A stretch of 64,000 bases of DNA, taken from positions 2,016,001 through 2,080,000 of the forward strand of contig CBDCJV010000002.1 in assembly GCA_965217895.1 (NCBI GenBank), in the 5' to 3' direction. Under the pieces are notes generated by a model. The model searched no databases, was not told the origin of the DNA, and saw nothing but the letters and a program-made list of their open reading frames with translations. The translations under genes were made by a program, and so were the position numbers. Positions 38,546-64,000 of the stretch are shown one piece after another. Source of the DNA: Waterburya sp. GTDB taxonomy: Bacteria > Cyanobacteriota > Cyanobacteriia > Cyanobacteriales > Xenococcaceae. The stretch's first letter is position 1. Each line of letters starts with the position of its first letter.

Positions 38546-38610
38546 TTTTCATTAGCAACCTCGCCAAACTATTCAGCCCTATAATAAATCCATAATTAAC
38601 AACTAAAACA

Positions 38611-39298: not shown

Positions 39299-39442
39299 AT
39301 AGCTAAATTTAGCAGAACCTGGTGGGGTCAAGTTTTTATTGAAGCGTTAGAGTCTTTTACTGATGCTGGTAGATTGGAACGGGGACGTTCCTACGCCAAC
39401 GGCAACAAAGTAAAAAGCTTTGACATTAATGGAAGAACTATA
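39299..39442 (+). pseudogene. 5' fragment of a SWIM zinc-finger family gene (start codon decayed to ATA)
   Basis: AKFSRTWWGQVFIEALESFTDAGRLERGRSYA matches the typical N-terminus of this family. Confidence 0.7.
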
Positions 39443-39567
39443 CCTCTAGAAGGGAAATCTTGAATAGTTATCCAAGGCTTGTAGTCTTTTCCTCTACCTT
39501 TACCTCTTTCTTCTTTTATATATGGCTCAAACTTAGCTTGAGTCCAATCGTATATGCTTCTTACCAT
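39442..39567 (-). pseudogene. tnsA: 5' fragment of Tn7-like TnsA
   Basis: MVRSIYDWTQAKFEPYIKEERGKGRGKDYKPWITIQDFPSRG matches the TnsA N-terminal RG.G.G.DY.PW....D.PS.G motif. Confidence 0.82.
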
Positions 39568-39599
39568 AAAAAAACTGTACAATACAGGATTACTATTAG

Positions 39600-39775
39600 T
39601 GTACAGCTTTAGTTACCAACTTTATGGTTATTCTACAAAAATGTAAAATCATAATTCGGTTGAACAATTTTAATTTACATAAAGCTATTAAAATCGTTAG
39701 CTTAATAATAATTTGAGCGAACAATTTACTTTTTAAGAATTAAACCATGTTAATTGTGACCTCAAAGCTGTAATA
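39600..39775. mobile_element. Candidate abutting Tn7-like right end (to 39637) and left end (from 39642)
   Basis: ATTCTACA-AAAA-TGTAAAAT; CATAAAG/AAAGCTGTA motifs read inward on both sides. Confidence 0.45.
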
Positions 39776-40175
39776 ACACGAGGGGACAATTTTTATGACG
39801 CTTGCTACGAAAGACTTTTGCATATCAAGTGCGGATGATTCGTTTTTTGCTTCAGTATACTATTTTCAAAAAAAGTATGGCGATTGCCTGTTTTTCGTTT
39901 CACCAAAACTGTGCAAGACCCTAATTAATTCATCACCATACCAGCTATATTTTTGGGGACTCCATTCTTCTTCAAGTCGTTTGGACAAGCTGCTTGAGAA
40001 GCAGCGTCCCCCGACTTCTATCTCTGCGTTGAAATCTGGTTTGAAATTAATCTAAGTAGACAAAAGAGCGTGTTGATCTGCTCGGTTTTTGTCCTGTACT
40101 TAGAACTAATTCAACTTTTTGCCACACTGCCGTACTCATCGTTATGGTAGATTTACTTAAAAAATAAATATAAAA

Positions 40176-43100
40176 ATGCCTAATATAAATCGTCAATCTA
40201 AAACTAAAGCCACTCTTTCAGCGATCGCGGTTGTGGGGATGAGTTGTCAATATCCAGGGGCCAAAGACATTAGGCAACTTTGGTCGAATATCTTGGCAAA
40301 ACGACAGCAATTTCGACAAATTCCCGATGTACGCCTACCAATAGCTGAATATTACGATCGCGATCGCTCTGTCCCCGATAAGACTTATGGCGATCGCGCT
40401 GCGGTAATTGATGGTTTTGAGTTTGATTGGATTGGGCGACGCATTCCTCAGCAAACAGTACAGACTACAGATATCGTACATTGGCTGGCGTTGGAAACTG
40501 CCAATGAAGCTTTAAAAGATGCAGGCTTTAATCGCCAAAATGTGAATACAGCCAAAACGGGGGTAATTTTAGGCAACACCTTAACTGGAGAGCAAACTCG
40601 TGCCAGTACCTTACGTTTGCGCTGGCCTTACGTCAGACGAGCTTTAATCGCATCTGCCCAAGCTAGAAAAATGAGCGATCGAGTAATTGAAGCTTTGGTT
40701 GAAACAATGGAGCAGTTTTATAAATCTGTTTTTGCTCCCGTCAACGAAGATTCTTTGGCAGGAGGACTTTCTAACACTATTGCTGGTAGGATTTGCAACT
40801 TTTTCAATTTTGATGGTGGAGGATACACGGTTGATGGGGCTTGTGCTTCTTCCTTAATTGCTACAGCTACAGCTTGCAGCAAATTAGTTAGTGGCGATCT
40901 AGATTTGGCTTTGGCGGGAGGAGTAGACGTTAGTTTAGATACCTTTGAGCTAATTGGTTTTGCTAAAACTGGAGCTTTGACTGCGGGCGATATGGCAGTT
41001 TACGATCGCCGTGCTAGTGGTTTTATTCCAGGAGAAGGCTGTGGTTTTGTCGTTCTCAAACGATTAGCAGACGCAAGAGCAGCAGGAGATTATGTTTATG
41101 GCGTAATTCGAGGCTGGGGCATTTCTTCTGACGGTAAAGGCGGAATCACTGCACCTTCTGGGATAGGACAAAGCAAAGCTATACTCAGAGCCTATGAAAA
41201 AGCAGGTTATCATCCATCAGAATTAGATTTCATTGAAGGACATGGTACGGGAACTCCTGTAGGCGATCGCGTAGAATTAGAAGGGATTGCTTTAGCCATT
41301 TCTCAAGGAGAAGCCCAGATTAAACTCCGCTCGGTAGGCATTACTTCATTCAAATCTTTAGTCGGACATACCAAAGCAGCAGCAGGGGTTGGTGGTTTGA
41401 TTAAAGCTGTTATGGCAGTCAACCAGAGAATAATTCCTCCTACTGCTGGCTGTGCTGAAGCAAATCCTTTATTTGCCACTACTGCCCAATCTATTTATCC
41501 TGTTTTAACGGGAAAAGTTTGTCAGCCAAATACGACTCTTCGGGCTGGAGTTTCGGCAATGGGTTTTGGGGGAATTAATTCTCACCTTACTTTAGAGTCG
41601 GGCGATCATGCAGCCGAGCATTTGAAAACCGATTTGTTTCCTAAAGCTTTGCTAGTTTCGGCTCAAGACAGCGAAGTATTTATTTTAAGTGCCATTTCTG
41701 TTGAGAAATTATTAGAGCGCATTGAAAGACTAATCGATCTGGCAAGGGGAATTAGTCTGGCAGAGATGGTAGATTTAGCTGCCCTGCTAACAAGGCAAAT
41801 AGATTCCCAGCAACAGGTAAGAGCAGCAATAATTGTGACGACACCCAAGCAGTTAGCTGAAATTCTCCAGAAAATCAAACAGATTTTAGCAGATTCGCCA
41901 CCAGCGAAAGGAGAACTGACAACATCTCCCACTCAAGATTTTTGGCTGGCAAATACAGTTAACCATTCTAAAGTAGCCTTTATCTTTCCAGGACAAGGTT
42001 CGCAAAGATTGAACATGGCGAGTACTTTAGTGGAGCGTTATGACTGGGCGCAGCAGTTAGTTAGACAAGCAGACAAATGGTTAGAGGAAGTTAGTTGTCA
42101 GCCAGTTAGCCCTTTAATCTATTGTTGTTTAGAACAAGCAGCAGACGAAAGCGAAATAACTAATTGGTTTAGGGATCTATCTCGTGCTGAAATTGCTTCT
42201 CCTGCTATTTGCTTGGTTTCTTTATTGTGGCTGCGCTATCTCCAAGAACTAGGAATTGAACCCGTGGCAGTCGGTGGACATAGCTTAGGCGAATTGACGG
42301 CTTTTTATCAAATAGGAGCTTTTGACGCTAAGACTTTAATTCAGTTTGCAGCAATTAGAGGTCGAGCTTTAGCCAATTCTGGCAAAGAAACAGGAGCTAT
42401 GGCTAGTCTGGGTTGCGATCGCGCCTTTGCTGACCAAATCATTCAACAGGCATCGGGCTATGTGGTTATTGCTAATTTAAATAGTCCCAGCCAAACGGTT
42501 GTTTCAGGGGAATCTGAGAGTATTGACTCAGTTGTAAAAATAGCGGTTGCTCGAGGAATTCAAGTTAAAAAATTGCCTGTAGCTAATGCTTTTCATTCTG
42601 AGATAGTCAGAGAAGCAGCTAAATATATTACAAATAATGCTGCAGTTCCCGCCAAGCTAGTAGACACTGCGACTCCTTTATTTTCCAGTATCGATGGCAA
42701 ACAAATTCAACCAGAAGTTAAATTAAGCCACCATTTTGGCAAACAGATAGTTTCTGCGGTAGATTTTGTAGCTTTAACAACAAATATTTACCAGCATTGC
42801 GATTTAATACTAGAGGTTGGTTCTGGTCGAGTTTTAGCTAACCTAATTAATACAACTATCAACTCTAAACAGCCCGTTGGCTTTTGTACTGAAGGCAAAC
42901 CGACAACAAGTAAAAATCTTAACTGCTTTTTAGGCAGATTATTCGTTGCCAATCAAGAAATAAACTGGCAAGCACTATATAAAAATCGTTTAGTACATTC
43001 TTTTATTCCACCGTCGGAAAAATTATTTATTGATAATCCTTGCGAACGTCCTTTTAAAGTACCTGAAACTTATTTATCTCAATTAACACCAATTTTGACT

Positions 43101-46100
43101 GAGAATCAACCACCAAACAGTTTAAATAAACTAGAAAGCCTAGATAAAATTATGGCTGCTAATCAACACGACTTTAAAGAAATATTATCTCAGTATTTTA
43201 GCGATCGCAGTTCCTTTTTAGCTGAAATAATTAAAGCAGATCTGGCAACTCTACCAAAGCAATTATTAAATTTAGAAAGCAGAAGCGATCGGGATTTAGT
43301 ACCTATGCTATCTCGGTATTTCCAGATCAGAGGCTCGTTTCTAGGGCAAATCATTAATTCAGACCTAAAATCTTTAAACTATCTCGATGGGTTAAAAACG
43401 CGATCGCCCTACCAAGAATTAGAGTTGAGCAATGCTATAAAATCAAATCTCAATTATCTCAATGGCAATAGTAATAATCATCAACAAGCCGAGCAAAATT
43501 ATGTTAACAAAGCTGTTTCATTGAAGCCAGAAGTAAAGCATCAAGCCGAAGCAGCTAATAATTTGCGATCGCATATCGAACAATTTTTATTAAACTCAGT
43601 TGTCGAGAAAACAGGTTATCCCCTAGAAAGTATCGACCTAAGTTTAAAATTATTAGATGACTTAAATTTAGACTCGATTAAAGCAGGAGAACTAATTGCT
43701 ATAACTGCTAAGAAGTTTGGTGTAGCTGGGCAATTACAGCCCTCTAGTTTGGCTAACGGTACTCTCAAGCAGATAGCAGAAGAAATTGTCTTATCAATTT
43801 CTGGAGATTCAAAAGTAGTCAATGACAATCCTAAAGCTGAAGGCGCGGTACTAGCCAACAAAAATCAGAAAATCGTTCCAAATATTGTAGTTAGATCGTC
43901 AACTTCTACCTGGGTGCGTAATTTTGCGATCGCCTATGTCGAGCAAAAAATACCTCAACGGGATAAAGATTGGTTACAAGCCAAAGTTTTAGTTGTTACT
44001 GACAAGACTCATTTAATTGCTGATGTGGTAGCCGAACAGCTTGGTAATTTAGGTGCGCGAGTTGATCGCATTACTTATCAAGAAATAGATGATAATCTGA
44101 CTGTAACTGCTAACTATTCTGATTATTTTGCGTTGCTACCCCAGACGAGTAGCTCTTTACCATTAAAGACAATGGTAGAAAGGCTTAAAAGCATTGTTAC
44201 GGCTAGTAAAAACAGTCTTACTCCCAATATTGCTTATATTCAGTTTGGCGGTGGTTATTTCGGCGAGCGACCCCGCGCGCGGTCAACGCGCAAGGGAACC
44301 CGCGAGCTTGGACAGGGAAAACAAGCAATATCTCCAGAAGTATGTTGCGCTGCTGCTTTTGCTCGAAGCTGGCATTTAGAGCGTTCGGATTTGCGAGTGC
44401 GAGTTATCGATCTGGCTACAGAAATTGAACCCAATGATGCTGCTCAATTAGCGATCGCCGAACTAGCAGGAAATGAAGCGATTGTTACTGTAGGCTATGA
44501 TGCAAATAAGAGACGTTTAGTTCCCAGACCCCTATTACAGCAACCAGTTCACTACCAAAAGCGCGATCGCTCATGGTCGGAACAAGATGTGATTTTAGTT
44601 ACGGGAGGCGCGAAAGGAATCACCGCCGAGTGTGCTTTAGCTTTAGCGCAGTCAATTGATGTAAGAATGGCAATAGTGGGACGTTCTAACCAATCAAAGG
44701 TAGCTCAAACCTTAGAACGATTTCCTAAGCAAGATCGAATCCGCTACTATACCTGCGATATTACCGATGCTGATGCAGTCAAACGATTAATTACTACGAT
44801 TACTGCCGACTTAGGTACAGTTACTGGCGTAATTCATGGTGCGGGAGTCAATCAGCCTCAAAGAGTTGAAGAAGTCAGTGTTGAAGCTGCGGTTGAAGAA
44901 GTGTCGCCCAAGCTACTAGGAGCATATAACCTCTTGCAATCCTTGGCAGCAACTCCACCAAAGTTATTTATGGCGTTTAGCTCGATCATCGGCGTAACGG
45001 GAATGCCTGGTAATGCTTGGTATGGATTTTCTAACGAATCTCTAGCCATCTTACTGCGCCAGTTTAACCGCCATCACCCAGAAACTCAAACTCTTTCTTT
45101 GGCTTACAGCGTTTGGGGTGAGGTAGGCATGGGAGCGCGTTTGGGTAGTCTCAAAAATCTAGAGCGCATGGGCATTGATGCTATTCCTACCCAAGAAGGA
45201 GTAAATCGCTTTGTTCAGCTTTTTCATTACGATCCAGGAGTACAGCAGATAATTATTGCTGCACGTTTGGGTGGTTTGGATACCTGGCTACCAGATTTTT
45301 CTCCACCAACCAAATTACGTTTTATCGAGTCAGTTTTGCACCTCGAACCCGAAGTAGAATTGACCGCTCGCACTCATCTTAGTTTAGAACGGGATTTATA
45401 CTTACAAGACCATCTCTGGCGCGGGTCTTATCTCTTTCCCACCGTATTCGGTTTAGAAGCAATGGCTCAAGCAACTGCCTACGTTCTGGGGGAAGAAAAA
45501 CCTGCGATCGCAGCAATTGAAGATATTTCTTTGAAACAGCCAATTGTCGTCGATCCAGATCGGGGAGTGGCTATAGAAATTTATGCTGAGGTGTTAGAAG
45601 TCGATCTTCAGGGAGAACGACGAGTCAAAGTCGCAATTCGCAGCGAACAGAGTAACTTTACTAGCGATTGCTTTACCGCCACATTAGTTATTAAAGAGGC
45701 AAAAGCACCAGTAAAACTAGATTTGAAACTAGATCGAGCCTTAGAATTAAATCCCCAAACCGATCTTTATGGCGACTTACTCTTTCAGGGTTCGCGTTTT
45801 CAAAGAATGGGTAAAATTTTTACTCTGACTTCTACAAATTGTGTTTTCCAGGCTGAAATGCGATCGCCAGACGAACTAATAGCAGATAGCTTTACTACTT
45901 ATGAAGATAGCTATCTAATTTTGGGCGATCCTTACTTGAGAGATGTATTACTCCAGTCAGTCCAGCTTACTATTCCCCGCGATATTTCCTTGCCCGTTAA
46001 GATCGGTAAGATTGAACTGTTTAATAATTCTTCAAGTCGCAATAATTCTAACAAAATCGTAACGGCTCATTTGCAACCGCGGTCAGGAAATGAATATTTA

Positions 46101-47951
46101 AGTGAAGTTTTGCTTACCGACGACTCAGGCCTTGTTTTAGAAAAATTGACTAGCTATCGTCTGCGGATTCTCGAAGAACATCCTGATAACCCAACTGCGG
46201 TCGAATTGGCTTTTCCTGAAACTCGCGATCGCCAGCTACTCGATCGGGCTTTAAAATCTGTTACAGATAAGTTCGATCTAAATTTACCTGCTATAGCTCT
46301 GGGAGTTACGCCCAATATACACAAAGTCAGCAAAGAACAACGCCGTCAAATAGAAAAACCGATTGTAGCTGATGCTCTAAATACTAAACTAGGTTTATCC
46401 TCCACAGCAGAAATTGAATTTGAGATTGAGTCTTTAGCTTCTGGGAAACCACAGCTGAAGGGGGCGGAAACCGCAGGATTAGAACTGTCTCTATCTCACT
46501 GCGATCGCTATTGTTTGGCTGTAATAGATAAAACGCCACAAGGATGCGACATTGAGCCAATTACTCTTCGTTTGACAGAAGATTGGCAAGCCCTTTTAGG
46601 AAACTCCCAAAGCGAGATTATTGCAGAATTAATTCAACAAGGAGACAGCCTAGACATGGCTGGTACTAGAATTTGGTCGGCAGGTGAAGCAATTAATAAA
46701 GCCTTCAACGACACTGATGCCCAATTTTCAATTAGCAATCGCGATGGCGATGCGGTGTTGTTAAAGTGTTTGACTCCTACAGGCAAATACTATGTCGTTA
46801 CATTTCCTATTAAATTAACTCGTCCTCTAGAAAGAATCATTGCGATCGCCGTTTCCTTACCTGGAACTGATTCAATCCCTGTAGTTTCTGCCCTCTCAAC
46901 TGATATTGCCGAAAATCGCAGCCATCGCTCCCGTTATACCAGAGACAATCCCCAAGGACAATTAGTTTACGAACAGCGTTTTCAAGCCAGCTTTAAAGAT
47001 AGTGGCAGTATTAGTCGTCACGTCTATTTCTCCCAGTATTTTCGCTGGATTGGTAAAATTCGCGAAATACCGATGGAAAGCATTGCCAACCAAATTTTAA
47101 GAGACTTCTTAACTGGAGAATGGGGCATGGTAACTAATACCGTTAGTCTGCGGGTATTGGGTGAAGCCACTGCTTATGATGTGATTCAAGCCCGCGCTTG
47201 GGTAGGTAATATTGTTGATTCTTCTTTTACTACTTATATTGAATTTTGCCAAGTGCTGCCTGACGAATCTTTAAGCAGACTGGCGATCGCTGAAGTTAAA
47301 GCTACCTGGGTACGTCTAGTTAGCTATGGTGTTCCTTCTCCTATGACTTTTCCAGACTATCTACAAGAATACCTCGACCGATTCGCGACCAAAAAACCAG
47401 CCACTCTCGATCTTAAACAACCCGATTCTTTACCCCTGCCACCATTACCTGCTAGTCTGAAGGAAATAAACTTAGGTCATTTACTACAACAGGCTTCTTC
47501 TCAGGAGCGTTATGGACAGCTAATCTACTCCGAAGTTTTTCAGACAACTCTAGAAGAATCAAATTTAGTCGGTAATGTTTATTACGGCAACTACTTTATC
47601 TGGCAAGGTCGGATTCTCGATCTGTTTCTCTACTCAATCGCTCCTGAATATTTACGGGTTTCAAACCCTCGCGGGGAAATGATTTGTCTGTACAGTCGTA
47701 TGGACTATCTAAAAGAAGCAATGCCTTTTGACAAAATTCGCGTCGATCTTTATGTCAGCTCGGTTTTTGAATCTGGAGCAAAATTTAACTTTGAATTCTT
47801 TCGAGAACAACCAGACGGAAAAAGAGAAAAACTTCACATTGGTCAGCAAGAGGTGGCATGGGTAAAACGGCTAGAAAATGGTACTCCTGTATCTACATCG
47901 TTGCCTCCGATATTGAGACAAAAGCTTTTAAAATCATTTAGCAAAAACTAA
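40176..47951 (+). CDS. Enediyne-type iterative type I PKS (KS-AT-ACP-KR-DH-PPTase) with two fused hot-dog thioesterase domains
   Basis: KS DGACASS/EGHGTGT/GHTKAAAG with PKSE-like LRLRWPYVRR and EDSLAGGLSNTIAGRICN; AT GHSLG; ACP LNLDSI; KR TGGAKGITAECA; DH DHLWRGSYLFP; PPTase SLSH/GCDIE/RIWSAGE; TE EESNLVGNVYYGNYFIWQGR. Confidence 0.92.
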   Translation: MPNINRQSKTKATLSAIAVVGMSCQYPGAKDIRQLWSNILAKRQQFRQIPDVRLPIAEYYDRDRSVPDKTYGDRAAVIDGFEFDWIGRRIPQQTVQTTDIVHWLALETANEALKDAGFNRQNVNTAKTGVILGNTLTGEQTRASTLRLRWPYVRRALIASAQARKMSDRVIEALVETMEQFYKSVFAPVNEDSLAGGLSNTIAGRICNFFNFDGGGYTVDGACASSLIATATACSKLVSGDLDLALAGGVDVSLDTFELIGFAKTGALTAGDMAVYDRRASGFIPGEGCGFVVLKRLADARAAGDYVYGVIRGWGISSDGKGGITAPSGIGQSKAILRAYEKAGYHPSELDFIEGHGTGTPVGDRVELEGIALAISQGEAQIKLRSVGITSFKSLVGHTKAAAGVGGLIKAVMAVNQRIIPPTAGCAEANPLFATTAQSIYPVLTGKVCQPNTTLRAGVSAMGFGGINSHLTLESGDHAAEHLKTDLFPKALLVSAQDSEVFILSAISVEKLLERIERLIDLARGISLAEMVDLAALLTRQIDSQQQVRAAIIVTTPKQLAEILQKIKQILADSPPAKGELTTSPTQDFWLANTVNHSKVAFIFPGQGSQRLNMASTLVERYDWAQQLVRQADKWLEEVSCQPVSPLIYCCLEQAADESEITNWFRDLSRAEIASPAICLVSLLWLRYLQELGIEPVAVGGHSLGELTAFYQIGAFDAKTLIQFAAIRGRALANSGKETGAMASLGCDRAFADQIIQQASGYVVIANLNSPSQTVVSGESESIDSVVKIAVARGIQVKKLPVANAFHSEIVREAAKYITNNAAVPAKLVDTATPLFSSIDGKQIQPEVKLSHHFGKQIVSAVDFVALTTNIYQHCDLILEVGSGRVLANLINTTINSKQPVGFCTEGKPTTSKNLNCFLGRLFVANQEINWQALYKNRLVHSFIPPSEKLFIDNPCERPFKVPETYLSQLTPILTENQPPNSLNKLESLDKIMAANQHDFKEILSQYFSDRSSFLAEIIKADLATLPKQLLNLESRSDRDLVPMLSRYFQIRGSFLGQIINSDLKSLNYLDGLKTRSPYQELELSNAIKSNLNYLNGNSNNHQQAEQNYVNKAVSLKPEVKHQAEAANNLRSHIEQFLLNSVVEKTGYPLESIDLSLKLLDDLNLDSIKAGELIAITAKKFGVAGQLQPSSLANGTLKQIAEEIVLSISGDSKVVNDNPKAEGAVLANKNQKIVPNIVVRSSTSTWVRNFAIAYVEQKIPQRDKDWLQAKVLVVTDKTHLIADVVAEQLGNLGARVDRITYQEIDDNLTVTANYSDYFALLPQTSSSLPLKTMVERLKSIVTASKNSLTPNIAYIQFGGGYFGERPRARSTRKGTRELGQGKQAISPEVCCAAAFARSWHLERSDLRVRVIDLATEIEPNDAAQLAIAELAGNEAIVTVGYDANKRRLVPRPLLQQPVHYQKRDRSWSEQDVILVTGGAKGITAECALALAQSIDVRMAIVGRSNQSKVAQTLERFPKQDRIRYYTCDITDADAVKRLITTITADLGTVTGVIHGAGVNQPQRVEEVSVEAAVEEVSPKLLGAYNLLQSLAATPPKLFMAFSSIIGVTGMPGNAWYGFSNESLAILLRQFNRHHPETQTLSLAYSVWGEVGMGARLGSLKNLERMGIDAIPTQEGVNRFVQLFHYDPGVQQIIIAARLGGLDTWLPDFSPPTKLRFIESVLHLEPEVELTARTHLSLERDLYLQDHLWRGSYLFPTVFGLEAMAQATAYVLGEEKPAIAAIEDISLKQPIVVDPDRGVAIEIYAEVLEVDLQGERRVKVAIRSEQSNFTSDCFTATLVIKEAKAPVKLDLKLDRALELNPQTDLYGDLLFQGSRFQRMGKIFTLTSTNCVFQAEMRSPDELIADSFTTYEDSYLILGDPYLRDVLLQSVQLTIPRDISLPVKIGKIELFNNSSSRNNSNKIVTAHLQPRSGNEYLSEVLLTDDSGLVLEKLTSYRLRILEEHPDNPTAVELAFPETRDRQLLDRALKSVTDKFDLNLPAIALGVTPNIHKVSKEQRRQIEKPIVADALNTKLGLSSTAEIEFEIESLASGKPQLKGAETAGLELSLSHCDRYCLAVIDKTPQGCDIEPITLRLTEDWQALLGNSQSEIIAELIQQGDSLDMAGTRIWSAGEAINKAFNDTDAQFSISNRDGDAVLLKCLTPTGKYYVVTFPIKLTRPLERIIAIAVSLPGTDSIPVVSALSTDIAENRSHRSRYTRDNPQGQLVYEQRFQASFKDSGSISRHVYFSQYFRWIGKIREIPMESIANQILRDFLTGEWGMVTNTVSLRVLGEATAYDVIQARAWVGNIVDSSFTTYIEFCQVLPDESLSRLAIAEVKATWVRLVSYGVPSPMTFPDYLQEYLDRFATKKPATLDLKQPDSLPLPPLPASLKEINLGHLLQQASSQERYGQLIYSEVFQTTLEESNLVGNVYYGNYFIWQGRILDLFLYSIAPEYLRVSNPRGEMICLYSRMDYLKEAMPFDKIRVDLYVSSVFESGAKFNFEFFREQPDGKREKLHIGQQEVAWVKRLENGTPVSTSLPPILRQKLLKSFSKN

Positions 47952-48011
47952 TTATGGATCTAGGTCTGTAAAATTAGCTGTAGTTTGAAACAATTTTGAG
48001 GAGCAATTGAT

Positions 48012-48989: not shown

Positions 48990-49039
48990 TTCATATAAAC
49001 CGCACCTCTATATTACCGAGAATAGAAAAGGAGACAATA

Positions 49040-49417
49040 ATGAAAATTCTCAGCCCTAAAATTCATGGATATCTAGACTATTTAGTAGTTGTCTGGTTTT
49101 TAGCTGCACCGACGTTATTCGGCTTGACTGACGTTGCTGCTAATATTTCTTATGCTCTGGCGATTATTCATCTAGGGTTAACTGTTTTGACGGCTTTTCC
49201 CTTGGGTGTAATTAAAGTAATTCCCTTGCAGTTTCACGGCGCGATCGAATTTATTGTCTCTTTTGCTTTGATTGCTTTGCCCTGGGTACTAGGATTTGCT
49301 TCAGTGGCATCGGCGCGTAATTTTTATATCGCTTCAGGAATTGCCATCTTTATAGTTTGGCTGATTACTCGCTATCAAAGTGCAGGAGTTAAAACAAAAA
49401 CAATCAATCAACCATAA
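49040..49417 (+). CDS. Small 4-TM membrane protein (SPW-repeat-like)
   Basis: Repeated HG.(L/I)(D/E)(Y/F) motif and LPWVLGF; AGGAG RBS. Confidence 0.7.
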   Translation: MKILSPKIHGYLDYLVVVWFLAAPTLFGLTDVAANISYALAIIHLGLTVLTAFPLGVIKVIPLQFHGAIEFIVSFALIALPWVLGFASVASARNFYIASGIAIFIVWLITRYQSAGVKTKTINQP

Positions 49418-49542
49418 AGATTATCTAGTTAAGAAGTTAAGCAATCGCATTTAATTCTCGAATAGAAATACCGATCTATCATTAGAACACAGTTAAATAC
49501 TCACAATAATAATCTTTCGTCTTTAATCGATCAAAATAAATA

Positions 49543-51300: not shown

Positions 51301-51393
51301 TAAATAGCTTTCCTGAAGGATACCGCCTTCTTATATTCGTAGAGGCGAACAATTGTTCGCCTCTACCTTTCTACTTTTTTAATAAAACCAACT

Positions 51394-53190: not shown

Positions 53191-53236
53191 CCATTTAGAT
53201 CTGCTGTCAATTTTAATAACTTAAATTTAAATAGAT

Positions 53237-54253: not shown

Positions 54254-54326
54254 GATAAAAGCTCGAAAAAATATTTAAATTAATAGAAAAGAGTAGACAC
54301 AATTTAGTCAACCCAAAATACTATTT

Positions 54327-56339
54327 ATGATTCGCATTCTGCTAGTAGACGATTGCAACATGATACGGCAAGGACTTCAAGCATTGCTCGAACTCAGAGC
54401 GAAACTAAAAGTAGTGGGTACTGCCGAAGATGGTCACAGCGTAATAGAACAGGTAAAGAATCTCCAACCTGATATTGTGTTGATGGATATCGAGATGCCA
54501 GGAATGAGTGGCATAACTGCCACCGAAAAAATTTGTCAGCAATTTCCCCAGACAAAAGTTATCGTTCTCAGCAGCCACGAAGAGCAAGAATATGTTATTC
54601 AAGCTTTAAAAGCGGGAGCAGAAGGCTATTTACTAAAAAATGCTCATGCTGATGATCTAGAACAGGCAATTTTCGCAGTATATCGAGGTCAGTGCCAGAT
54701 AGAGTCAAAATTATTTAAAGAAGTATTCGCCAAATCTTCTATTTTGCGATCTCTTGAATCATCAGAACTAAACACATCTACTTCGATAGGCGAGCGATCG
54801 CCTGAGTTAGAAAGGGATCTCAACCAGGCGTTTAATTATACGGAGAACAGTAAAAATGGCTCATCGTCAAAGATTAGCAAGACGATTCCAAAACTAGTAA
54901 ATGAACGATCGTCATCTGAGATTGACGAAGTAAACGCTAGCTCTGCTTCAAAACGAGATACTGTTTATCAGCCATTAGCTTGGGGTTTAGAAACATCGGC
55001 GTTAAACTCTGACTCGATTGAGGAAAAACCAAAATTGCAGCCTAAAAAAACCATATTTTTCCAGTATTTGTGGTGGTGGATTATCGGCTTAGGGGTCTTT
55101 TCCATCTTATTGATTGCTATAATTACTTTTGTTTATTTACGAGCTAGCAAAAATTCTCCTCAACCAGTTGTAGAAACTCGCGTCGTACCCCAAGCAGTTT
55201 CAGCAATTGGTTATTTAGAACCACAAGGAGAAGCAATTAAACTATCTGCACCTGCTTTTTTGGAAGGGGCGCGTATCGAGCAGTTGCTGGTCAAACGAGG
55301 AGAAAAGGTTAAAACTGGGCAAGTAGTAGCAATTTTAGATAATCGCGATCGCTTACAGGCTGCTCTCCAACAAGCACAAGCAGAAGTAAAAACGGCTCAA
55401 GCTCGTCTGGCACAAGTCAAAGCAGGAGCCAAACAAGGAGAAATCCAATCGCAAAACGCTAAACTTCAAGAGACAAAAGCCGAATTAGCTGGGCAAATTG
55501 CTACCCAAACCGCCAACATTGCTAATTTAAAAGCTCAACTTGAAGGACAAACTAATTCTCAACGGGCAACTATTGCCAGATTAAAGGCTGAATTAAACAA
55601 CGCGACTAAAGAATGTCAGCGATACGAATTTCTCTTAGCCGATGGTGCGATCGCTGCTTCCAAACGCGATCGGATCTGCTTGCAGCAAGAAACTACTCAA
55701 AAACAACTCCAAGCTGCAAATGTAAATTTAATTGAAACTAAAGCGACCCTACAACAACAAATCGGTGAAGCCCAAGCTAATTTGAAACGTACTAAAGCAA
55801 CTTTAGCTAACCAAATTAATGAAGCCGAAGCTAGTTTTAAAGCCGTAGCCGAAGTCCGCCCTGTAGATGTAGCCGTCGCTCAATCCGAATTAGCAACTGC
55901 GATCGCTGCTGTTAAAAAGGGACAAGCAGACTTAGATTTAGCCTCTGTAAAATCGCCAATAAACGGTCAGATCTTAGAGATTAATACTTGGCCAGGAGAA
56001 TTTGTTGACAATGCCAAAGGTATAGTGGTGATGGGCGATACCCAGAATATGTACGTAGTCGCAGAAGTCTACGAAACCGATATAGATCGCGTTCACATCG
56101 GTCAAAGCGCAACCATTACTAGCGATGGAATTACTCAAAAACTAGCTGGAACTGTCGATGATGTTGGTTGGCAAATTGGCACTAAAGACGTTCTTGGTAC
56201 TGATCCTGTAGCAGATACAGACGCTAGAGTTGTCAAAGTCAAAATTCGCTTAAACGCCAAATCTAGCCAGCGAGTAAAGCATTTAACTAACCTAGAAGTT
56301 AACGCCATTATCAATACATCCAAACAGATTCAAAAATAG
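54327..56339 (+). CDS. Receiver domain fused to a DevB/HlyD-family membrane fusion protein
   Basis: IRILLVDD/LMDIEMP/YLLK receiver; TM; AIGYLEPQG, coiled coil, VAEVYETD and DARVVKVKIRL DevB motifs. Confidence 0.88.
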   Translation: MIRILLVDDCNMIRQGLQALLELRAKLKVVGTAEDGHSVIEQVKNLQPDIVLMDIEMPGMSGITATEKICQQFPQTKVIVLSSHEEQEYVIQALKAGAEGYLLKNAHADDLEQAIFAVYRGQCQIESKLFKEVFAKSSILRSLESSELNTSTSIGERSPELERDLNQAFNYTENSKNGSSSKISKTIPKLVNERSSSEIDEVNASSASKRDTVYQPLAWGLETSALNSDSIEEKPKLQPKKTIFFQYLWWWIIGLGVFSILLIAIITFVYLRASKNSPQPVVETRVVPQAVSAIGYLEPQGEAIKLSAPAFLEGARIEQLLVKRGEKVKTGQVVAILDNRDRLQAALQQAQAEVKTAQARLAQVKAGAKQGEIQSQNAKLQETKAELAGQIATQTANIANLKAQLEGQTNSQRATIARLKAELNNATKECQRYEFLLADGAIAASKRDRICLQQETTQKQLQAANVNLIETKATLQQQIGEAQANLKRTKATLANQINEAEASFKAVAEVRPVDVAVAQSELATAIAAVKKGQADLDLASVKSPINGQILEINTWPGEFVDNAKGIVVMGDTQNMYVVAEVYETDIDRVHIGQSATITSDGITQKLAGTVDDVGWQIGTKDVLGTDPVADTDARVVKVKIRLNAKSSQRVKHLTNLEVNAIINTSKQIQK

Positions 56340-56351
56340 GGGATTAAATTA

Positions 56352-57524
56352 ATGTTCGATCGCTTGTTTACTGCTTGGCTACAGCTAAAATATCAAAAAA
56401 TTCGGTTTTTAATTGCACTTTCGGGGGTAATTTTTGCCGTTGTCATTGTTTTTATGCAATTGGGTATTCGCGATGCCTTATTTAACAGTGCGGTTCGTTT
56501 TCACCAAGGTTTACAAGGAGACTGCTTTATTATTAGTCCTCGCTCGACATCTTTAATCGCCATGGAAAGTTTTTCTCAACGCCGTTTGGTGCAAGCCTTA
56601 GCTTTTGAAGAAGTAGAATTTGTTAATCCGATTTATCTTGATTTTGTCCAGTGGAAAAATCCCGAATCTAGAAAATACTGGCGTAATATTTTTGTAATAG
56701 GTTTCGATCTTCGACACCAAACTTTCGACTTACCTGGAGTTAAAGCAAGTCTCAATCAACTTCAACTTCCAGATACTATTTTATTTGATCGCACTTCGAG
56801 AACTGAATTTGGACCAGTAGCCGAACAATTTGAGGAAAAAGGTTCGGTGATTACCGAACTGGGAAGTAATAGCGGTTCTAATTGTCGAGTTAAAGTAGTA
56901 GGATTATTTGAGTTAGGAACTTCTTTTGGTTCTGATGGCAACATTATTACCAGCGACGTTAACTTTTTGCGGATCTCAAATACTCGTCAAAAAGGCTTTA
57001 TTGATGTTGGTTTAATTAAATTAAAATCGGCTGTCAATCCAGAACTTTTTAAAACTAAGCTGCAAAAATATTTAGCCCAAGATGTCAGAATTTTTACCAA
57101 ACAGGGATTTATTAACTTTGAAAAAAGCTATTGGCAAAGCAGCACTGCCATTGGCTTTATTTTTAATTTGGGTGTCGCTTTGGGCCTAATCGTCGGCATT
57201 GTCGTGGTTTATCAAATACTTTATACCAACATTTCCGACCACTTGCAGGAATACGCCACTTTAAAAGCGATCGGTTACAGTCGAAGATATATGTTAAATA
57301 TAGTTTTTCAACAAGCTTTAATTATCGGAATTTTGGGTTATATTCCAGGATTATTAATTACTATTATTCAATATGAGTTTACCAAACAGGCAACTTTGCT
57401 ACCAATTGAGATGACTTGGCAAAGAGCGGCGTATGTCTTGGTAGCAACCATAATTATGTGTTCGATCTCTGGGGTTTCGGCGATGAATAAGCTGAAGTCT
57501 GCCAACCCTGCCGATATCTTTTAA
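56352..57524 (+). CDS. devC: DevC-family ABC exporter permease
   Basis: AWLQL, FMQLG, YQILY..ISDHL.EYATLKAIG and PADIF motifs. Confidence 0.9.
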   Translation: MFDRLFTAWLQLKYQKIRFLIALSGVIFAVVIVFMQLGIRDALFNSAVRFHQGLQGDCFIISPRSTSLIAMESFSQRRLVQALAFEEVEFVNPIYLDFVQWKNPESRKYWRNIFVIGFDLRHQTFDLPGVKASLNQLQLPDTILFDRTSRTEFGPVAEQFEEKGSVITELGSNSGSNCRVKVVGLFELGTSFGSDGNIITSDVNFLRISNTRQKGFIDVGLIKLKSAVNPELFKTKLQKYLAQDVRIFTKQGFINFEKSYWQSSTAIGFIFNLGVALGLIVGIVVVYQILYTNISDHLQEYATLKAIGYSRRYMLNIVFQQALIIGILGYIPGLLITIIQYEFTKQATLLPIEMTWQRAAYVLVATIIMCSISGVSAMNKLKSANPADIF

Positions 57525-57535
57525 TCTTTTTAGCG

Positions 57536-58219
57536 ATGAACCCAATTGTGATCCGCAATTTAAATCATTATTTTGGCGAACAAGCTTTAGTCAAACAAAC
57601 CTTATTTGACATCAATATAGAAATCAAAGCGGGTGAGATTATAATCCTAACTGGTCCTTCAGGATCTGGTAAAACTACCTTGCTAACTTTAATCGGTGGA
57701 CTGCGATCGGTTCAATCTGGCAGCTTGCTAACTTTAAATCGAGAATTATGCGGGGCAAGTGAAGCCGACTTAGTCCAACTCAGACGCAAAATTGGCTATA
57801 TCTTTCAGGCACACAATTTATTACCCTTTATGACCGCACAACAAAACGTGCAGATGTCTTTAGAACTAGATAATAATTTAAGTAGTCGTCAAGCTGCTGT
57901 AAAAGCCATGGAAATGCTGGCAGCAGTAGGCTTAGAAGCAAGAGCTAAATACTATCCCCAAAAACTTTCAGGGGGACAAAAACAACGGGTGGCGATCGCC
58001 AGAGCTTTAGCCAGCAATCCTGAGTTAGTTTTAGCCGATGAACCAACTGCTGCTTTAGATAGTAAAACAGGTCGAGAAGTTGTCAATATAATGCGTCGCT
58101 TGGTCAAAGAAAAAAACTCGACGATCCTTTTAGTAACTCATGACAATCGTATTTTAGACACAGCCGATCAAGTTATCCATCTAGAGGATGGTCGCTCGAT
58201 CGGGATAAGTGGTAACTAA
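57536..58219 (+). CDS. devA: DevA-family ABC exporter ATPase
   Basis: LNHYFG, GPSGSGKTT, GYIFQAHNL and LSGGQKQRVAIARA motifs. Confidence 0.92.
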   Translation: MNPIVIRNLNHYFGEQALVKQTLFDINIEIKAGEIIILTGPSGSGKTTLLTLIGGLRSVQSGSLLTLNRELCGASEADLVQLRRKIGYIFQAHNLLPFMTAQQNVQMSLELDNNLSSRQAAVKAMEMLAAVGLEARAKYYPQKLSGGQKQRVAIARALASNPELVLADEPTAALDSKTGREVVNIMRRLVKEKNSTILLVTHDNRILDTADQVIHLEDGRSIGISGN

Positions 58220-58326
58220 CCTATCCTACTAATATAATAGTAGTGGGGGTTTGAGTAGCAACTGATACTGAGCCACGAACTTAACATTTAGACGAAAGGC
58301 GATCGCCAGCAAAAATAGCCAAAGTT

Positions 58327-58866
58327 AATCAGGAGCTAACTTAGCAAAAGAAGATACGCGAGTTTTTGCAAAAGGGATACCCTCAAACCACGCAAACAGA
58401 CGAACCGCATTCATCGCAGCCACTGTAAGTATGTATTGTAAATGAACTTTATCCAATTGATTCGACATTATGTTGTTGCTTACTCTTAACTAATAAAGTG
58501 CCATCTACATAACCCGCATCAATCAAATGCTCAGATGGTAATAATTCTTTGTCAGCTAAAGATTGATGAATTGATTCAGTTTGGTCTACATCACTTAAGT
58601 GGGCTTGTATTGTTTGAACATTGGTAATTAAATGAACTTGCCTTTTCTCACAAGTTTCAGTTAGATGTACCTTTCAAGGCTAAACTGCCAGGACGCAGGA
58701 CTGGCTGACCTTCAGATGAATAAAGTTCGGCAAAATCTTCATCATCGTAAAATGTTCCCAATTTATCTCTCAGGCTTATATAAAGATTCCCTTTGGGAAA
58801 AGCTTGGTGGGCTATTTCTTTAGTGAGAGATGGGATGGGTTTGATTGATTTACGATGTAGAACCAT
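58327..58866 (-). pseudogene. IS1182-family transposase remnant with internal deletions
   Basis: AFPKGNLY..LRDKLG..DEDFAELY..GQP (N-term), HLITNVQT...HLIDAGYVD (middle), HLQ..LT.AAMN..RL..W (C-term). Confidence 0.75.
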
Positions 58867-58983
58867 AATTAATGACTCTCCCAGAACTTTTTTAATTACC
58901 TATAAGCTCAATTTAGGTCATTTTGTGAAACTAAATTATTAAAGATTGCGACCGCTTTTCGTCTAAATGTTAAGTTCGTCAGC

Positions 58984-59782
58984 CTGTGGGGGCGACACAA
59001 GAGGGATAAAAGCAAGCCAGGAGTGAGATTGAGAAAAGTAGTCTCCCAAAAGATGAGAGACTATTATCAATAATCTTTTTTGTTGAAAACGGAATGATTC
59101 TGTCTTGGTCAGCGTTCCCTTGCGTCTTACGCCGACGCGGGGTCTGACCGCAACTACCCGAATTATATAGCAAACATCTCAAAAAACAATTTAGTTGTTC
59201 TCAGTATCTAATCTTCGTAATCCTAATCAACTTACTTCAAGATTTACACACAGTCCGATTAGAAGAATTAGCCCGTCGTTTTCCTATATCCATTCAATTA
59301 AGAAGCAGAGTCAAGAAAATACAACGATTTTTATCTCTTCCTCTATTTAATATTCAAAATCTTTGGTTTCCCATTTTAGAAACTTGGCTAAAAACAGAGT
59401 GGCAAGGCAAGCAAACAATTTATTTAGCCATTGATCGTAGTCAGTGGAGAACTATAAATTTACTGATGGTTAGTATGATTTATAATAATCGAGCGATTCC
59501 AGTATATTTTTTTCTCTTACCTAAGAAGGGAAATAGTAACTTAGCACAGCAAAAACAAGTTTTAGAACCAACACTAAAACTGTTACAAGACTATCAAATT
59601 GTTGTGCTAGGAGATCGAGAATTTTGCGGAGTAGAGTTAGCTCGATGGCTTTCAGATTTTTCCAAGATGTCGTTCAAGAATTGATCCGTTTTTCAACTGC
59701 CAAACACGATTATTATCGAAAAGGTATGAGGGCTAAAGCCTTGATTCAGCAAGCTTTCTGATTCGTTCTGTTGCCCCTACAG
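58984..59782 (+). mobile_element. IS4-family element, internally deleted
   Basis: Terminal IRs CTGTGGGGGCGACA / TGTTGCCCCTACAG; transposase fragments LPELY...YLAIDRSQW...LGDREFCG and C-terminal YYRKGMRA. Confidence 0.8.
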
Positions 59783-60458
59783 GGCTAATTTATCAACCTT
59801 TTCTTCGAGTTTAAGATTAGAACTATTGACTATGGTTTTTACTTTTTTACGAAATTTCAAGAAATTCTCCTTAGATGGAGTGCTTCTGAATTTGCCGTTG
59901 CTTTGAACCTTGAAGTTCCAGCCTAAAAAGTCAAATCCATCTGTCGAGGCTGTTAGCTTTGTTTTCTTCTCGCTTATTTCCATTCCTCTTTCGGCTAAAA
60001 ATTCTTTTACTTTGTTTAATAACTCTTTAGCATTGTCTTTGGATTTTAAGAAGAAAATCATATCATCTGCATATCTAACGCATATTGATTGCATTTTTCT
60101 TTTGGCTTTGATTTCGCCTATTCTTTCAATACCGTTTAATGCTATGTTGACAAGTAATGGGCTAACCACCCCGCCTTGAGGAGTTCCTTGTTCTGGAAAT
60201 TGAACGTTTGTCCCCGCTTTAAGACATCTGAAAATGCCTAGACTTAAGTTTCGGGGGCAGAGAAGTTCGTCCATTATGGCTTTGTGGCTAATCCTATCGA
60301 AGCATTTGCTGATATCAAGTTCTAGGACTCTTTTATCCATTCCTTTTACTCGGCTGTTTAGATTTTGAAAGATTATCTTTTGGGCATCGTGACACCATCT
60401 AGCTGGTCTGAATCCGTAGCTTTGGGCATGAAATGTAGCTTCATGTGCTGGTTCTAGA
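59783..60458 (-). pseudogene. Group II intron reverse transcriptase core, truncated at both ends by IS sequences
   Basis: SYGFRP, ELDISKCFD, GTPQGGVVSPLL.N, RYADD and GFDFLG motifs. Confidence 0.88.
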
Positions 60459-60645
60459 GTTGGCGCGAACAAAACCAATAAACTGAGTCTCCCCTGGAAA
60501 TGGTAGATAATCCATCATTAGAGCCAGATAGAGCCAGAGTCATAATTTCGCTGTCACTCATTTCTGGCTTTACCCCAGGACATTTACGCTCGCTTGATTT
60601 CTCTAGCTGATACCAATCGTCTACAAGAACGAAAACTATCACTCT
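60459..60645 (-). pseudogene. IS982-family transposase 5' fragment
   Basis: IVFVLVDDWYQ...G.KP.MSDSEIMTLAL and frameshifted ETQFIGFVRAN. Confidence 0.72.
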
Positions 60646-60744
60646 TTTGGCTTTCAAAGTCTATGCTATTCATGAGGAAAGATATTTAGATGGGCAGCTT
60701 GATAACTTTCATCTTCTGTCTTTTCCTCACTTTTTCCTAATTCA

Positions 60745-60936
60745 CACTAGACGTACAATATTGAAAATTTTATTATTTGTAACAGTGCTTGATACTCCAT
60801 TAATATCTATTTCTTTGGCAATCTCTAGTACGCGATCGGCGATCGCGATTGGTACTTTTATTGTTTTTGTTTTCCCAGACTTCCACTTTGGCTAATATTT
60901 AACCAAAGAAGATTCATTACCTTTTTTATTAGCCAT
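60745..60936 (-). pseudogene. Small plasmid/mobile-element-type DNA-binding protein gene with an in-frame stop
   Basis: MANKKGNESSLVKY*PKWKSGKTKTIKVPIAIADRVLEIAKEID; the ribbon-helix-like T.TI.VP..IAD..L..A segment is recalled from small cyanobacterial plasmid proteins. Confidence 0.5.
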
Positions 60937-61069
60937 GATTCACTTGATACACTGTACTAACCATAACAAATTTCCATATTTAAATAACTTGTGTCAAGTG
61001 ATTAACTAATAATCGCGGTCTTTATTTTGTACAGTTAGTTTGTGTTGTAGGTTTATCTTTTTTGCTCAT

Positions 61070-61936
61070 CTACCACCTAAATCTAGCTACACAATCTAGA
61101 AAATAGGCTTCGTTTGTACCTACTCTTACTACTGGAACTCCAATAATGTTATCCATTTTTACCAAAAAGTTAAGTAAGTCATCTTTGCTTCTTCTAGCAT
61201 TAACCAAGTTTTGCATCTCATCAATAACTAACATCCCTAAGTGATGAGTATGAGCTAGTTGAGCTACCTGAGCCAACATATAATCTTCAGAGTTACGAGT
61301 TGAGCCAAATTTTTTAAAATAATTCGTGCCAAGCAAGAGATCGATTTCCTTGAAAATATCGATACATAATCCTTTTAGCGAACCAACGTGAGGACAATCT
61401 ACTTTAATCCATACAAGCTGATAAACGTTATATTCTGAATGGGCAATAACTTGAGGGTATAGATTGAGAATATTCTTTAAATTAGTGGATTTACCCATTC
61501 CTGAAGGACCGATTAGCGTAAAACCAGAAGCAGAGGTTGGTACATTGACATAATCTTCAATAGTTTTACCATTTCCTGTTTTGATGGCTTCATAGATTTG
61601 ATTGGCACGGCGAGCGTATTCTGGCTCGATAGGATTGCGAGCTAAGTAGCCTTGCATCAATAGAACGCTAACAATTCTTTGTAGTTCAAAAGTTTGATTC
61701 AAAGGAAAAAAATATCTTGATAATCTTTCAACGCAATGAAACCTAAATTGCGAGTCGAAAAATCTTTCCTCTTCCGCAAAATTAGGCATTCGAGTGACGC
61801 GATCGACAAATTCTTCATTAGAAAAAATTGCTGGTAATGCCCTAATCATGAGATTAGCATTGTACTCAGCAAGTTTTTGGTCGTTATAATCAGCAATTGC
61901 TGCTATTGTACCGTTTGAAATTTGTATTTGAGCCAT
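61070..61936 (-). pseudogene. tnsC: Tn7-like TnsC AAA+ ATPase, C-terminally truncated
   Basis: N.MI.ALP, GY..RNP, Walker A GPSGMGKS, KVDCPH.GSLKGLC and Walker B LVIDEMQ; homology ends after RVGTNEA. Confidence 0.88.
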
Positions 61937-61945
61937 TTTAAATTA

Positions 61946-64000
61946 TTATTTTTCTCTGTTTTTTTGCTCTCTGCGTTTTCTCGCGATCAGATTTAAATTT
62001 TTGCGTTTTACCGACTTGGAACTCGAATTTTCAGAATTTTCAGAAGATTGATGAGTAATCTTATGCTTTGATAGCCTGTTTTTTTCTAAATCTTAAGAAC
62101 GTTTATCTGCTTTTATCTTGACAGTGGCTTGCGACTCTTCTTGGCGGTCGCTTAATTCAAAACCTTCTTGTTCGCGTCGTTTTTCTTTTTCAAAGGCGCG
62201 ATTATCACGAATTCCTTTAACTCGTTCGTTTTTACTTAAGGTTTTATCTTTAACTACATCAGTTAAAGTTGTGGCTTGCTTCACTACCGATTCAATTTCA
62301 GACATCAAATTTATTTCCTGTTGAATTTGCTTACCCTGATATTTCTGATGTTGATAATTTTCATAAGCAAATAAATATTCTATGTCATCAAAAGGCTTTC
62401 CCTTATATTTATTATCAGGATCGATAATGAAACATTTTTCGTACTCTCTACCATTAGGCGAACGAAGATAAATAAAGTCTGGCTTTCTTGGATCGTATGA
62501 AATGTTTAATGATTTCTCATCTTTAGTTAGCAGTTTATTTCTAGCTCTTTCAAACCACTGCTCTTTGATAGCTTTGTCACATATATAGTAAAGATCTTTT
62601 TTAAACTTAATTCCCTTTGCAGTAATAGTTGCTTTTTCCGCAGGCATTAAATTCAGTTTGACAATATCCTCACTAAAAGTTTTGAGTTTTCCAGAACGAT
62701 TGCTAATTCCCCATTTCCAAAGTTCTCGAGGAATTGGTTCGATATCGTCCGTTATCATCATTTCTTCTCGATCATAGTTTTCTAAGAAATGATGATTATT
62801 GTGATGTCTAATTAAGTGAATAATGATTTCGGTAAATTGATTTGTGTCAAGTTTGGCATCCAAGCGATAGTCTTTTCCGCCTCTTTGTGTAAAGTTAATA
62901 TCTACATAACCTGGTAAAAATGGCTTGACTCGATCGTGAATAATACGAAAGTGTCTTTCCACTAAACCTTTCCAATCGGCTCGATAGGGAGCAGCATTTT
63001 CAATGCGAATTCCCAGATTGCTGATTAAAGTTTCGACTTTTTTACCTGCTAGTTCGCCACGATCGCCCAGAATAGCATCTGGTATATGATGTGCCAACCA
63101 TTCTTCTTCCTCAATCTCTATTCCATATTCAGCACAATATTCAACCTTATTTCTAGCAGCATTGACCAAAGCCATCATCATTCCGACCCACGAAGGTCCT
63201 TCCAAGCCAACATACACGCCAGTTATCATGCGACTAAAAACATCTATAACCACGTACACTACTGGTCTGCCACTAATCCAATTGCGATTGTAAGGTGAAA
63301 CTAAATAAACATCAGCAACAGTGGCATCGATTTGATAGCGAGAACCAGGACCAATTGATTCTTGTTTAGAGTTTCCTAAAATAGCTCGATGTTTGAGTGC
63401 AAAAGTTCTACTTGCTTTTCTAGAAGAAATAGTTTTTTTAATATCATTTTGTTCCTTATTATACCAATATCTAAATTGATTTAATGTTGGTCTTTTTTCG
63501 GGAGGAATCAGAATTGTTTTTTTAACACCGCGATTGTCAAATGTAATTTCTTCTGTATAGTATTCCTTGAGCATTAGCTTATATGCTGTAGTTAAAGAAT
63601 TTTTTTTGCGATTATTATAAAATTTGGTTATTGCTGTTCGGAAAGTTCTTCTATCTTCTTCTGTAATATTTATACCTTTACCTATTTCTGGAACAATACC
63701 GTACTTTCTAGGTCTACCTCTCTTTACACTATTCGATTTTCGCGTTGTACCTTTTCCCGCAGAATTAACATGATCTGGGATTAAGGCATTTTTGATCTTT
63801 CCTCGCTGCCAATATCTTCTTAGGTAACCGTATACTGTTTTTTCTACTACTTTTCCTTTAGTTTTTCCTTGATTATATTTTTCTACAACTTCTTTTACTA
63901 AAGAGCCTCGTAAATGTCTATAGTATATATCTGGTTCTTGAGTTACTAGTGATGAAATGATATTCCAGGCTTTATTTCTAATATCTATTTCTCTCTCTAA
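61946..64000 (-). pseudogene. tnsB: Tn7-like TnsB DDE transposase (5' end beyond the window; premature stop at 62093-62095)
   Basis: LRRYWQRG, KRGRP, GPGSRYQIDAT.AD, VIDVFSRMI.G, DRGE and KGLVERHF motifs; frame continues 48 codons past the TAA to a stop 10 bp before tnsC. Confidence 0.92.

Follow-up and report, generated by a model that had tools for sequence, protein, structure and literature searches.

How an intact 18-kb polyketide gene cluster came to lie beside the glmS gene of a Waterburya sp., between what look like the two ends of a Tn7-like transposon, is the question raised by this locus. The window analysed is a stretch of 64,000 nucleotides (G000:C2:2016001-2080000) of a near-complete 5.29-Mb genome, G000; coordinates above 64000 continue the window numbering along contig C2. 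An earlier note on the window had proposed that the cluster is cargo of a younger Tn7-like element that abuts the right end of an older, collapsed one. It expected tnsA, an inverted right end, a matching target duplication and an attachment gene past position 64000. The cluster does lie between both ends of a broken 25.5-kb element and, as judged from sequence, it likely rode in with this element (probability about 0.6), having been captured from the host's own clade.

Three TnsB-type sites (39650, 39707 and 39772) are spaced along the left end of the younger element (TGTAAAAT; 39642..39818, plus strand). The right end (TGTACAAT; 65056-65164, minus strand) has at least two adjacent TnsB-type sites, at 65156 and 65136. 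The two ends, starting at 39642 and 65164, are inverted relative to each other and identical at 24 of 28 bases, and the next-best site for this 28-base end on either strand of the whole genome matches at 21/28. They have the features of Tn7-like termini: inverted orientation, a TGT start, an 8-bp terminus and multiple TnsB sites. The left end is 70-73% identical over 165-178 bp to ends at the loci L109 and L110, and homologous three-site left ends are present in L103, L104, L109 and L110. A pattern search for this end type gave matches in six other genomes of 400 and in two short metagenome contigs, none with the polyketide synthase (PKS), although the reversed control also gave matches in six and two of the genome matches, which lack the TGT start, are likely due to chance.

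The element is flanked by a perfect 6-bp direct repeat, CAAAAA (39636..39641 and 65165-65170). Tn7-like elements canonically duplicate 5 bp of target (PMC11406308). If the repeat is taken as 5 bp, 4/5 bases match and a one-base slip is required; in this run of A residues, a 6-bp duplication is indistinguishable from a 5-bp duplication with a slip. Just beyond the right copy lies glmS (65191-67098, minus strand), the stop codon of which is 26 nt from the younger right end (+26). All four features expected past the edge of the window are therefore present, with tnsA at 64255-65055. At the left junction, a contig from the public run X1 (possibly the source sample) covers 38983-40088 with 0 differences, and it stops where homology to the leaders of the relatives' clusters starts; the right junction is known from the assembly alone.

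The transposition genes of the younger element are encoded on the minus strand: a truncated tnsC (61070..61936), tnsB (62093-64225, with its start beyond the window) and tnsA. The proteins have structure matches to Tn7 TnsA (E-value: 1e-37), TnsB (7pik; E-value: 3e-114) and TnsC (E-value: 3e-50), and TnsA matches the families PF08721 and PF08722 above cut-off. The tnsB-tnsC pair that the earlier note had placed at the right of the window is real, although tnsC is not whole: it keeps homology only up to residue 278 of about 560. TnsB is cut short by a stop codon, with 48 codons of the homologous frame lying beyond it, and so has lost the C-terminal tail of its relatives. TnsA has an in-frame 5-residue gap in a conserved helix that is kept in Tn7 TnsA and in the four relatives compared in frame (the out-of-frame G024 row was left out). 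This damage predicts that the younger element would not transpose alone.

The targeting genes also appear to be missing. In intact relatives, tniQ, the cas genes and tnsD occupy the place that is here filled by mobile-element debris (59151..61100). Searches (tblastn) with the TniQ, Cas5-8 and TnsD proteins of G107 and L052 found none in the G000 element or genome; there is no TnsD in the genome and the sole TniQ is a weak match in a distant V-K-type locus. A TIGR03485 search was negative in G000, but its control was silent as well. No array-like CRISPR repeat occurs in 58200-62100, and an Rfam search of 56001-68000 gave no matches. Because tnsC is cut just upstream of the position of tniQ in the relatives, the TniQ/TnsD selector was probably lost from the element.

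The younger TnsB is 62-73% identical to, and grouped (96/99) with, the TnsB proteins of G107, G077, L052, L053, G017 (67% identity) and G021 in a tree of 11 rows with two long outer branches. Within this group, G107, G077 and L052 carry cas6/8/7/5 and L053 carries cas6 and a partial cas8. G107 is complete through tnsD, and the members lie at glmS, several of them with tniQ and type I-B/MYXAN cas genes. On this evidence the younger element can be classified as a dead, non-autonomous remnant of the type I-B1 CRISPR-associated transposon (CAST) lineage rather than as a CAST, and it presumably once held cas genes.

To the left of the younger element lies the remnant of another. Between the cluster and the second minus-strand tnsA stub seen by the earlier note, there are two ends, as proposed: the younger left end at 39642 (plus strand) and an older right end at 39637 (minus strand). 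The older end (TGTAGAAT; 39568..39637) has one TnsB-type site (39629-39608), compared with two to three in relatives. The adjoining stub (39436..39567, ATG at 39567) has 44 codons of tnsA homology and is the sole further tnsA match in the genome; 30/44 residues are identical to the younger TnsA and 33-35/44 to the TnsA of three relatives. At the DNA level, the older end and stub are 84-86% identical to the glmS-proximal ends and tnsA starts of G018, G021 and G024, and the stub is merely 77% identical to the younger tnsA.

The older right end has its first two bases within the left copy of the direct repeat. When the younger element and one repeat copy are removed in silico, the older TGT falls exactly 24 nt after the glmS stop codon. 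Right ends of the older type are found at glmS at +23 to +25 in five relatives, three of which (G017, G018 and G021) have them at +24. AvCAST is described as inserting at +24 with its right end toward glmS in 11/12 products (PMC13251919). The restored spacing indicates that the tandem order is real and, together with the similarity of the older end and stub to those of relatives, that the older element was very probably at glmS first and that the younger one inserted two bases into its right end. The abutment of the younger element on an older, collapsed one thus stands, with the older end displaced from +24.

The TnsB-site sequences differ between the two elements. TnsB and its sites underlie target immunity (PMC11014353, PMC11406308), so it is plausible that the younger element escaped immunity through its different TnsB sites.

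About 200 bp are left of the older element, joined head-on to an N-terminal gene fragment of host or cargo origin (39299..39463, plus strand). The joint between fragment and stub marks the break at which everything else of the older element was lost. A search of the G000 genome for an older-type left end pattern found none, the right end being the sole match. The fragment is 46% identical to a G000 open reading frame (ORF) at C2:4573387 and has no Pfam or NCBIfam match; it is presumably the N-terminus of a SWIM zinc-finger protein. In G019 and G023, the psbA gene that adjoins the island here has another gene downstream of it, and therefore the left border of the island is a rearrangement junction.

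Several minor features were seen at this border and in similar settings. Between psbA and a Uma2 gene, 122 bp of the window (38417-38538) are 89% identical to two sites in broken transposase ORFs, and on a contig from run X3 the Uma2 gene is joined directly to the gene fragment at 39303. Elsewhere, L104 (G007:C91) and L109 each have two left ends that point the same way and are separated by a few hundred bases, the young type followed by the old type, and L125 (G017:C69) has two old-type left ends in the same arrangement. These pairs resemble tandem arrays that have collapsed and that had ends of the same two families.

The surroundings of glmS are disturbed in many relatives. Among 19 examined (five chosen for having tnsA; G016 gave only 25 bases), 13 retain traces of tns, cas6/cas8 or ends no more than 15 kb from glmS, in nearly every case broken (L032-L051), and G019 has a partial second glmS copy downstream of glmS. 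An empty glmS site that would define the island was sought in the same 19, but downstream neighbours differ in nearly all of them. Rearranged left ends usually lie far from glmS (three in G017 and one in G019). Orphan left ends with two or three sites are found beside ordinary host genes at G017:C69, G017:C127 and G019:C2:2022474, showing frequent rearrangement through glmS-inserted elements in the genus. In G020, 18 bases identical to the G000 left end (C1:2356217-2356234; L037, L128) lie 25 nt after the glmS stop codon, an unexpected orientation for a left-type end. This match then breaks into a short repeat that is also present at 15071-15123 of the window and that appears to resemble the 3' end of a group II intron.

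The cargo consists of nine co-oriented, open ORFs (40176-58219, plus strand) that form an intact cluster. The first encodes a 2591-aa iterative type I PKS (40176..47951) similar to the enediyne PKS (PKSE) SgcE of the C-1027 pathway (39% identity over residues 14-1018 and 27% over 1018-2232). It keeps the ketosynthase (KS), acyltransferase (AT) and acyl carrier protein (ACP) motifs and shares with SgcE the order KS-AT-ACP-ketoreductase (KR)-dehydratase (DH). In a plasmid search with this PKS, SgcE-type genes ranked top after one cyanobacterial homologue. Unlike SgcE, it has a fused thioesterase-like domain (4HBT_2, residues 2463-2565, above the Pfam cut-off). The PKS gene is followed by genes for an RTX calcium-binding repeat protein (48012..48989), a 125-aa SPW-repeat protein (49040..49417), two FAD-dependent halogenase-like oxidoreductases (49543..51300 and 51394..53190) and an alpha/beta hydrolase (53237..54253). 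The last three genes (54327..58219) encode a DevBCA ABC exporter in the order DevB (with a receiver domain), DevC and DevA (TIGR02971, TIGR01185 and TIGR02982, all above cut-off). The halogenase-like genes and the exporter are further differences from the enediyne system.

The enediyne cassette includes E3, E4 and E5 (PMC4480864), and none of these genes was found at the locus. The C-1027 DUF1702 and E4 proteins have no match in G000, with the DUF1702 control giving a match in G046; an E5 query has one 25% match in G000, about 0.48 Mb away. A UnbV search gave no matches anywhere, its controls being silent too. As PKSE and thioesterase alone are reported to yield a heptaene (PMC4480864), the product is predicted to be a modified, possibly halogenated, exported polyene rather than an enediyne. 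Enediyne-like type I PKS clusters have been noted in Microcystis (10.1101/2022.10.12.511943).

Downstream of the cluster lies a 705-bp insertion sequence (IS) remnant with 43-bp terminal inverted repeats (58275..58979), which is presumably IS1182-like; no partner copy of it was found left of the PKS. The debris region that follows contains a transposase fragment (59151-59681, plus strand; presumably IS4-like), part of a group II intron reverse-transcriptase gene (59777-60478, minus strand) and short pseudogenes.

The history of the cluster can be followed in the relatives. The same 18-kb block, about 87-92% identical in DNA, is present in G017, G019 and G020. In an rpoB tree of 30 genomes these form a clade (100/100) with G000 and G023, so that four of the five members carry the cluster and G023 is without it. 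Fourfold-site divergence from G000 is 0.180 (G020), 0.216 (G019) and 0.244 (G017) for the cluster, and 0.208, 0.193 and 0.203, respectively, for single-copy best matches from the flanks (40, 33 and 24 genes, not a genome-wide set). The SPW gene was left out of the cluster pool, and the G020 value includes an antisense shadow ORF (100/2366 sites). The transposase does not show the core-like sharing seen for the cluster, since the G017 TnsB is 67% identical. The copies in the sister species are 85-91% identical, and the nearest ones outside the clade at most 63%. By these measures, the cluster is an old possession of the host clade and not a distant import.

None of the copies in G017, G019 and G020 is at glmS; G019 and G020 have no TnsA match, and their TnsB matches are distant (25-30%). 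The observation that the earlier note had named as contrary to its proposal, a cluster at the same locus in relatives with no Tn7 traces, was not made, the sister species holding the cluster at other loci. A psbA gene upstream of the G019 PKS was considered as shared synteny and rejected, its best match being a different G000 psbA copy.

Related copies vary in content. Contigs of related organisms in the runs X1-X3 match the window (37500-57000) across the cluster at about 85-95% identity, and on one X3 contig the SPW gene is absent. In G031, G013, G046 and L119, more distant PKS copies consist of two genes, divided near the AT-ACP border. G046 adds a DUF1702 gene, and a copy on a plasmid of Gloeothece verrucosa PCC 7822 has three halogenase-like genes. 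In G020, further halogenase-like and PAS-type sensor genes (labels read from translation) lie about 4 kb upstream of the PKS (L014:14688-16340), in an IS-rich island; the G000 block has neither of them.

The order of events proposed for the locus has four steps. An older element with ends of the locally common type would have inserted, right end first, 24 nt after the glmS stop codon, as the sequence strongly suggests. A second element with different TnsB sites then inserted at +26 and displaced the first, as the direct repeat and the displaced end show. This second element, a glmS-targeting member of the type I-B1 CAST lineage, would have held the cluster in the cargo slot by its left end. 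The cluster would have been taken from the G000 lineage or a sister lineage, and cut-and-paste movement would have left no second copy. Finally, IS and intron insertions and a deletion would have removed the 3' half of tnsC and the tniQ/cas/tnsD place, a state evident in the present sequence. The tnsA and tnsB genes have decayed, and a separate rearrangement would have cut the older element to about 200 bp, with the cluster staying intact.

The cluster is cargo by position, as the earlier note had it, and its co-transposition with the element, now decayed, is likely rather than established. Since the left flank once adjoined glmS, the PKS cannot be an original resident here and arrived with or after the insertion. 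Both ends are properly oriented and 25.5 kb apart, unlike the scattered ends of relatives, and the cluster is single-copy. The PKS sits where cargo is usually found, next to the left end and separated from it by a 266-bp spacer in which no IS was found. A 32-bp repeat in this spacer was tried as an IS end; being a dispersed palindrome inside several unrelated genes, it was rejected, and with it a composite-transposon signature. This palindromic repeat (39981-40012) has at least seven further copies in the genome, some within transposase and host genes.

A number of observations weigh against arrival with the element. The duplication is 6 bp rather than the canonical 5 bp, though within an A run. 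No other Tn7-like element with this PKS was found, and the well-formed left ends of the same type in L103, L104, L109 and L110 have no PKS after them. Four of 23 other carriers have a TnsB of this type, each on a contig other than that of the PKS, although fragmented carrier assemblies may hide linkage across gaps; in the six near-complete carriers the PKS is 158 kb to 2.9 Mb from glmS. The neighbours of the cluster differ in all four clade members that carry it and are often IS remnants, so that the cluster moves without Tn7. In G000 itself, IS debris lies directly after devA.

In the main rival account, the element reached glmS without the PKS, and the resident cluster was later moved between the ends by IS-driven or illegitimate rearrangement, possibly in the very event by which the 3' half of tnsC was lost together with tniQ, cas and tnsD. 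The cluster would then be cargo by position without ever having transposed with the element. Such later entry is a possible though doubtful account. It is compatible with a cluster divergence equal to that of other genes, with cluster flanks that differ in every clade member, with the poor synteny of the genus and with the IS and intron debris directly downstream, and IS-aided entry has been proposed as the usual route of cargo into Tn7-like elements (PMC8649781). However, no IS or matching repeat was found left of the cluster, and later entry would require 18 kb to have been inserted cleanly between two small blocks that stayed intact, whereas in relatives the ends are scattered by rearrangement.

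Horizontal import of the cluster by the element from a distant cyanobacterium, with the element as chief carrier of a patchy cluster family, is very improbable. The family is indeed patchy, the PKS type being present in 22/401 genomes of the order, and the homologous cluster in Gloeothece verrucosa PCC 7822 is plasmid-borne. Yet the sister-species copies are at core-like divergence while those outside the clade have at most 63% identity, none of the 23 carriers has the cluster linked to a TnsB of the younger-element type, and no tns gene is annotated within 20 kb of the cluster on the Gloeothece plasmid, for which the gene table is incomplete. The fourfold-site comparison, in which the divergence of the cluster matches that of other genes, has already largely refuted this explanation, and the element was not the means of a distant import. 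A last alternative, that the ends are matched by chance or misassembled and that the PKS merely lies beside a Tn7 remnant, could draw on the AT-rich sequence and the 6-bp repeat in an A run but is very improbable indeed. It is refuted by the 24/28 inverted match that is unique in the genome, the homology of the ends to multi-site ends elsewhere and the exactly restored +24 spacing; the contig that crosses the left junction without differences also speaks against it.

Taken further, the reading in which the cluster arrived as cargo leads to a more tentative proposal: a CAST-lineage element with changed TnsB sites may have bypassed immunity, captured the clade's own cluster and delivered it to glmS by cut-and-paste. 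If so, such elements would naturally carry entire secondary-metabolite clusters from one cyanobacterial strain to another, and clusters parked at a safe site could outlive the transposon.

Among known systems, the younger element is most readily compared with AvCAST (Tn7743, type I-B1, Anabaena variabilis), through its published description, since no AvCAST chain was among the structure matches. Both have separate tnsA, tnsB and tnsC genes beside the glmS-proximal right end, and insertion about 24 nt past the glmS stop codon. The set tniQ-cas6-cas8-cas7-cas5-tnsD is present in the nearest complete relatives (G107). AvCAST ends have three spaced left-end and three contiguous right-end TnsB sites (PMC13251919); the younger element likewise has three spaced left-end sites and adjacent right-end sites. 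It differs in having no tniQ, cas genes, array or tnsD, in damage to all three tns genes, and in lying at +26 with a 6-bp repeat. Its TnsB-site sequence also differs from the common local type.

Divergent Tn7 elements have reportedly been found stacked at glmS by Parks and Peters (2007). Tn7 and the stacked attTn7 islands resemble the present locus in the glmS target, the TGT...ACA termini, the single orientation and the position of the newer element between glmS and the older one. The differences are the cyanobacterial lineage, the lack of any TnsE-sized gene seen in the element, an older element of only about 200 bp, and a cargo that is a polyketide cluster and not an integron.

Both the tandem insertion of Tn7-like elements at glmS and the carriage of biosynthetic genes are known in kind. 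Tn7-like cargo has been reported to include nonribosomal peptide synthetase genes, and the word 'polyketide' is absent from the main text of the same large cargo survey (PMC8649781). In a literature search that left most subscription journals and supplements outside its reach, no report was found that places a PKSE-like cluster within an element of the type I-B CAST lineage, nor any paper on tandem type I-B elements at glmS in cyanobacteria. Among the papers listed on Tn7 with biosynthetic or polyketide cargo, none described a Tn7-borne PKS in its title or the start of its abstract. At this locus, two successive Tn7-like insertions into a single attachment site are recorded to the base pair. 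With its different TnsB sites, the second insertion offers a natural test case for the bypass of target immunity, and an intact 18-kb polyketide cluster is placed inside a CAST-lineage element. The weight of the case is limited by the death of the element, by a co-transposition that is no more than likely and by the existence of the cluster without Tn7 in sister species. Independently of the transposon, the cluster (PKSE-like, with halogenase-like tailoring and no enediyne cassette) is an orphan natural-product target.

Two other modules of this kind were seen. An apparently complete type I-B CAST lies at glmS in G107 (C1:228233-242935; L131, L132), with the gene order tnsA-tnsB-tnsC-tniQ-cas6-cas8-cas7-cas5-tnsD and restriction-modification-like cargo, and can serve as an intact reference. 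G000 itself has a second, distant Tn7-like module (C2:4504856-4507941; L070:9856-12941) that encodes a TnsB of 567 aa, a TnsC of 288 aa and a TniQ of 175 aa and has no tnsA, a layout that is presumably that of a type V-K CAST.

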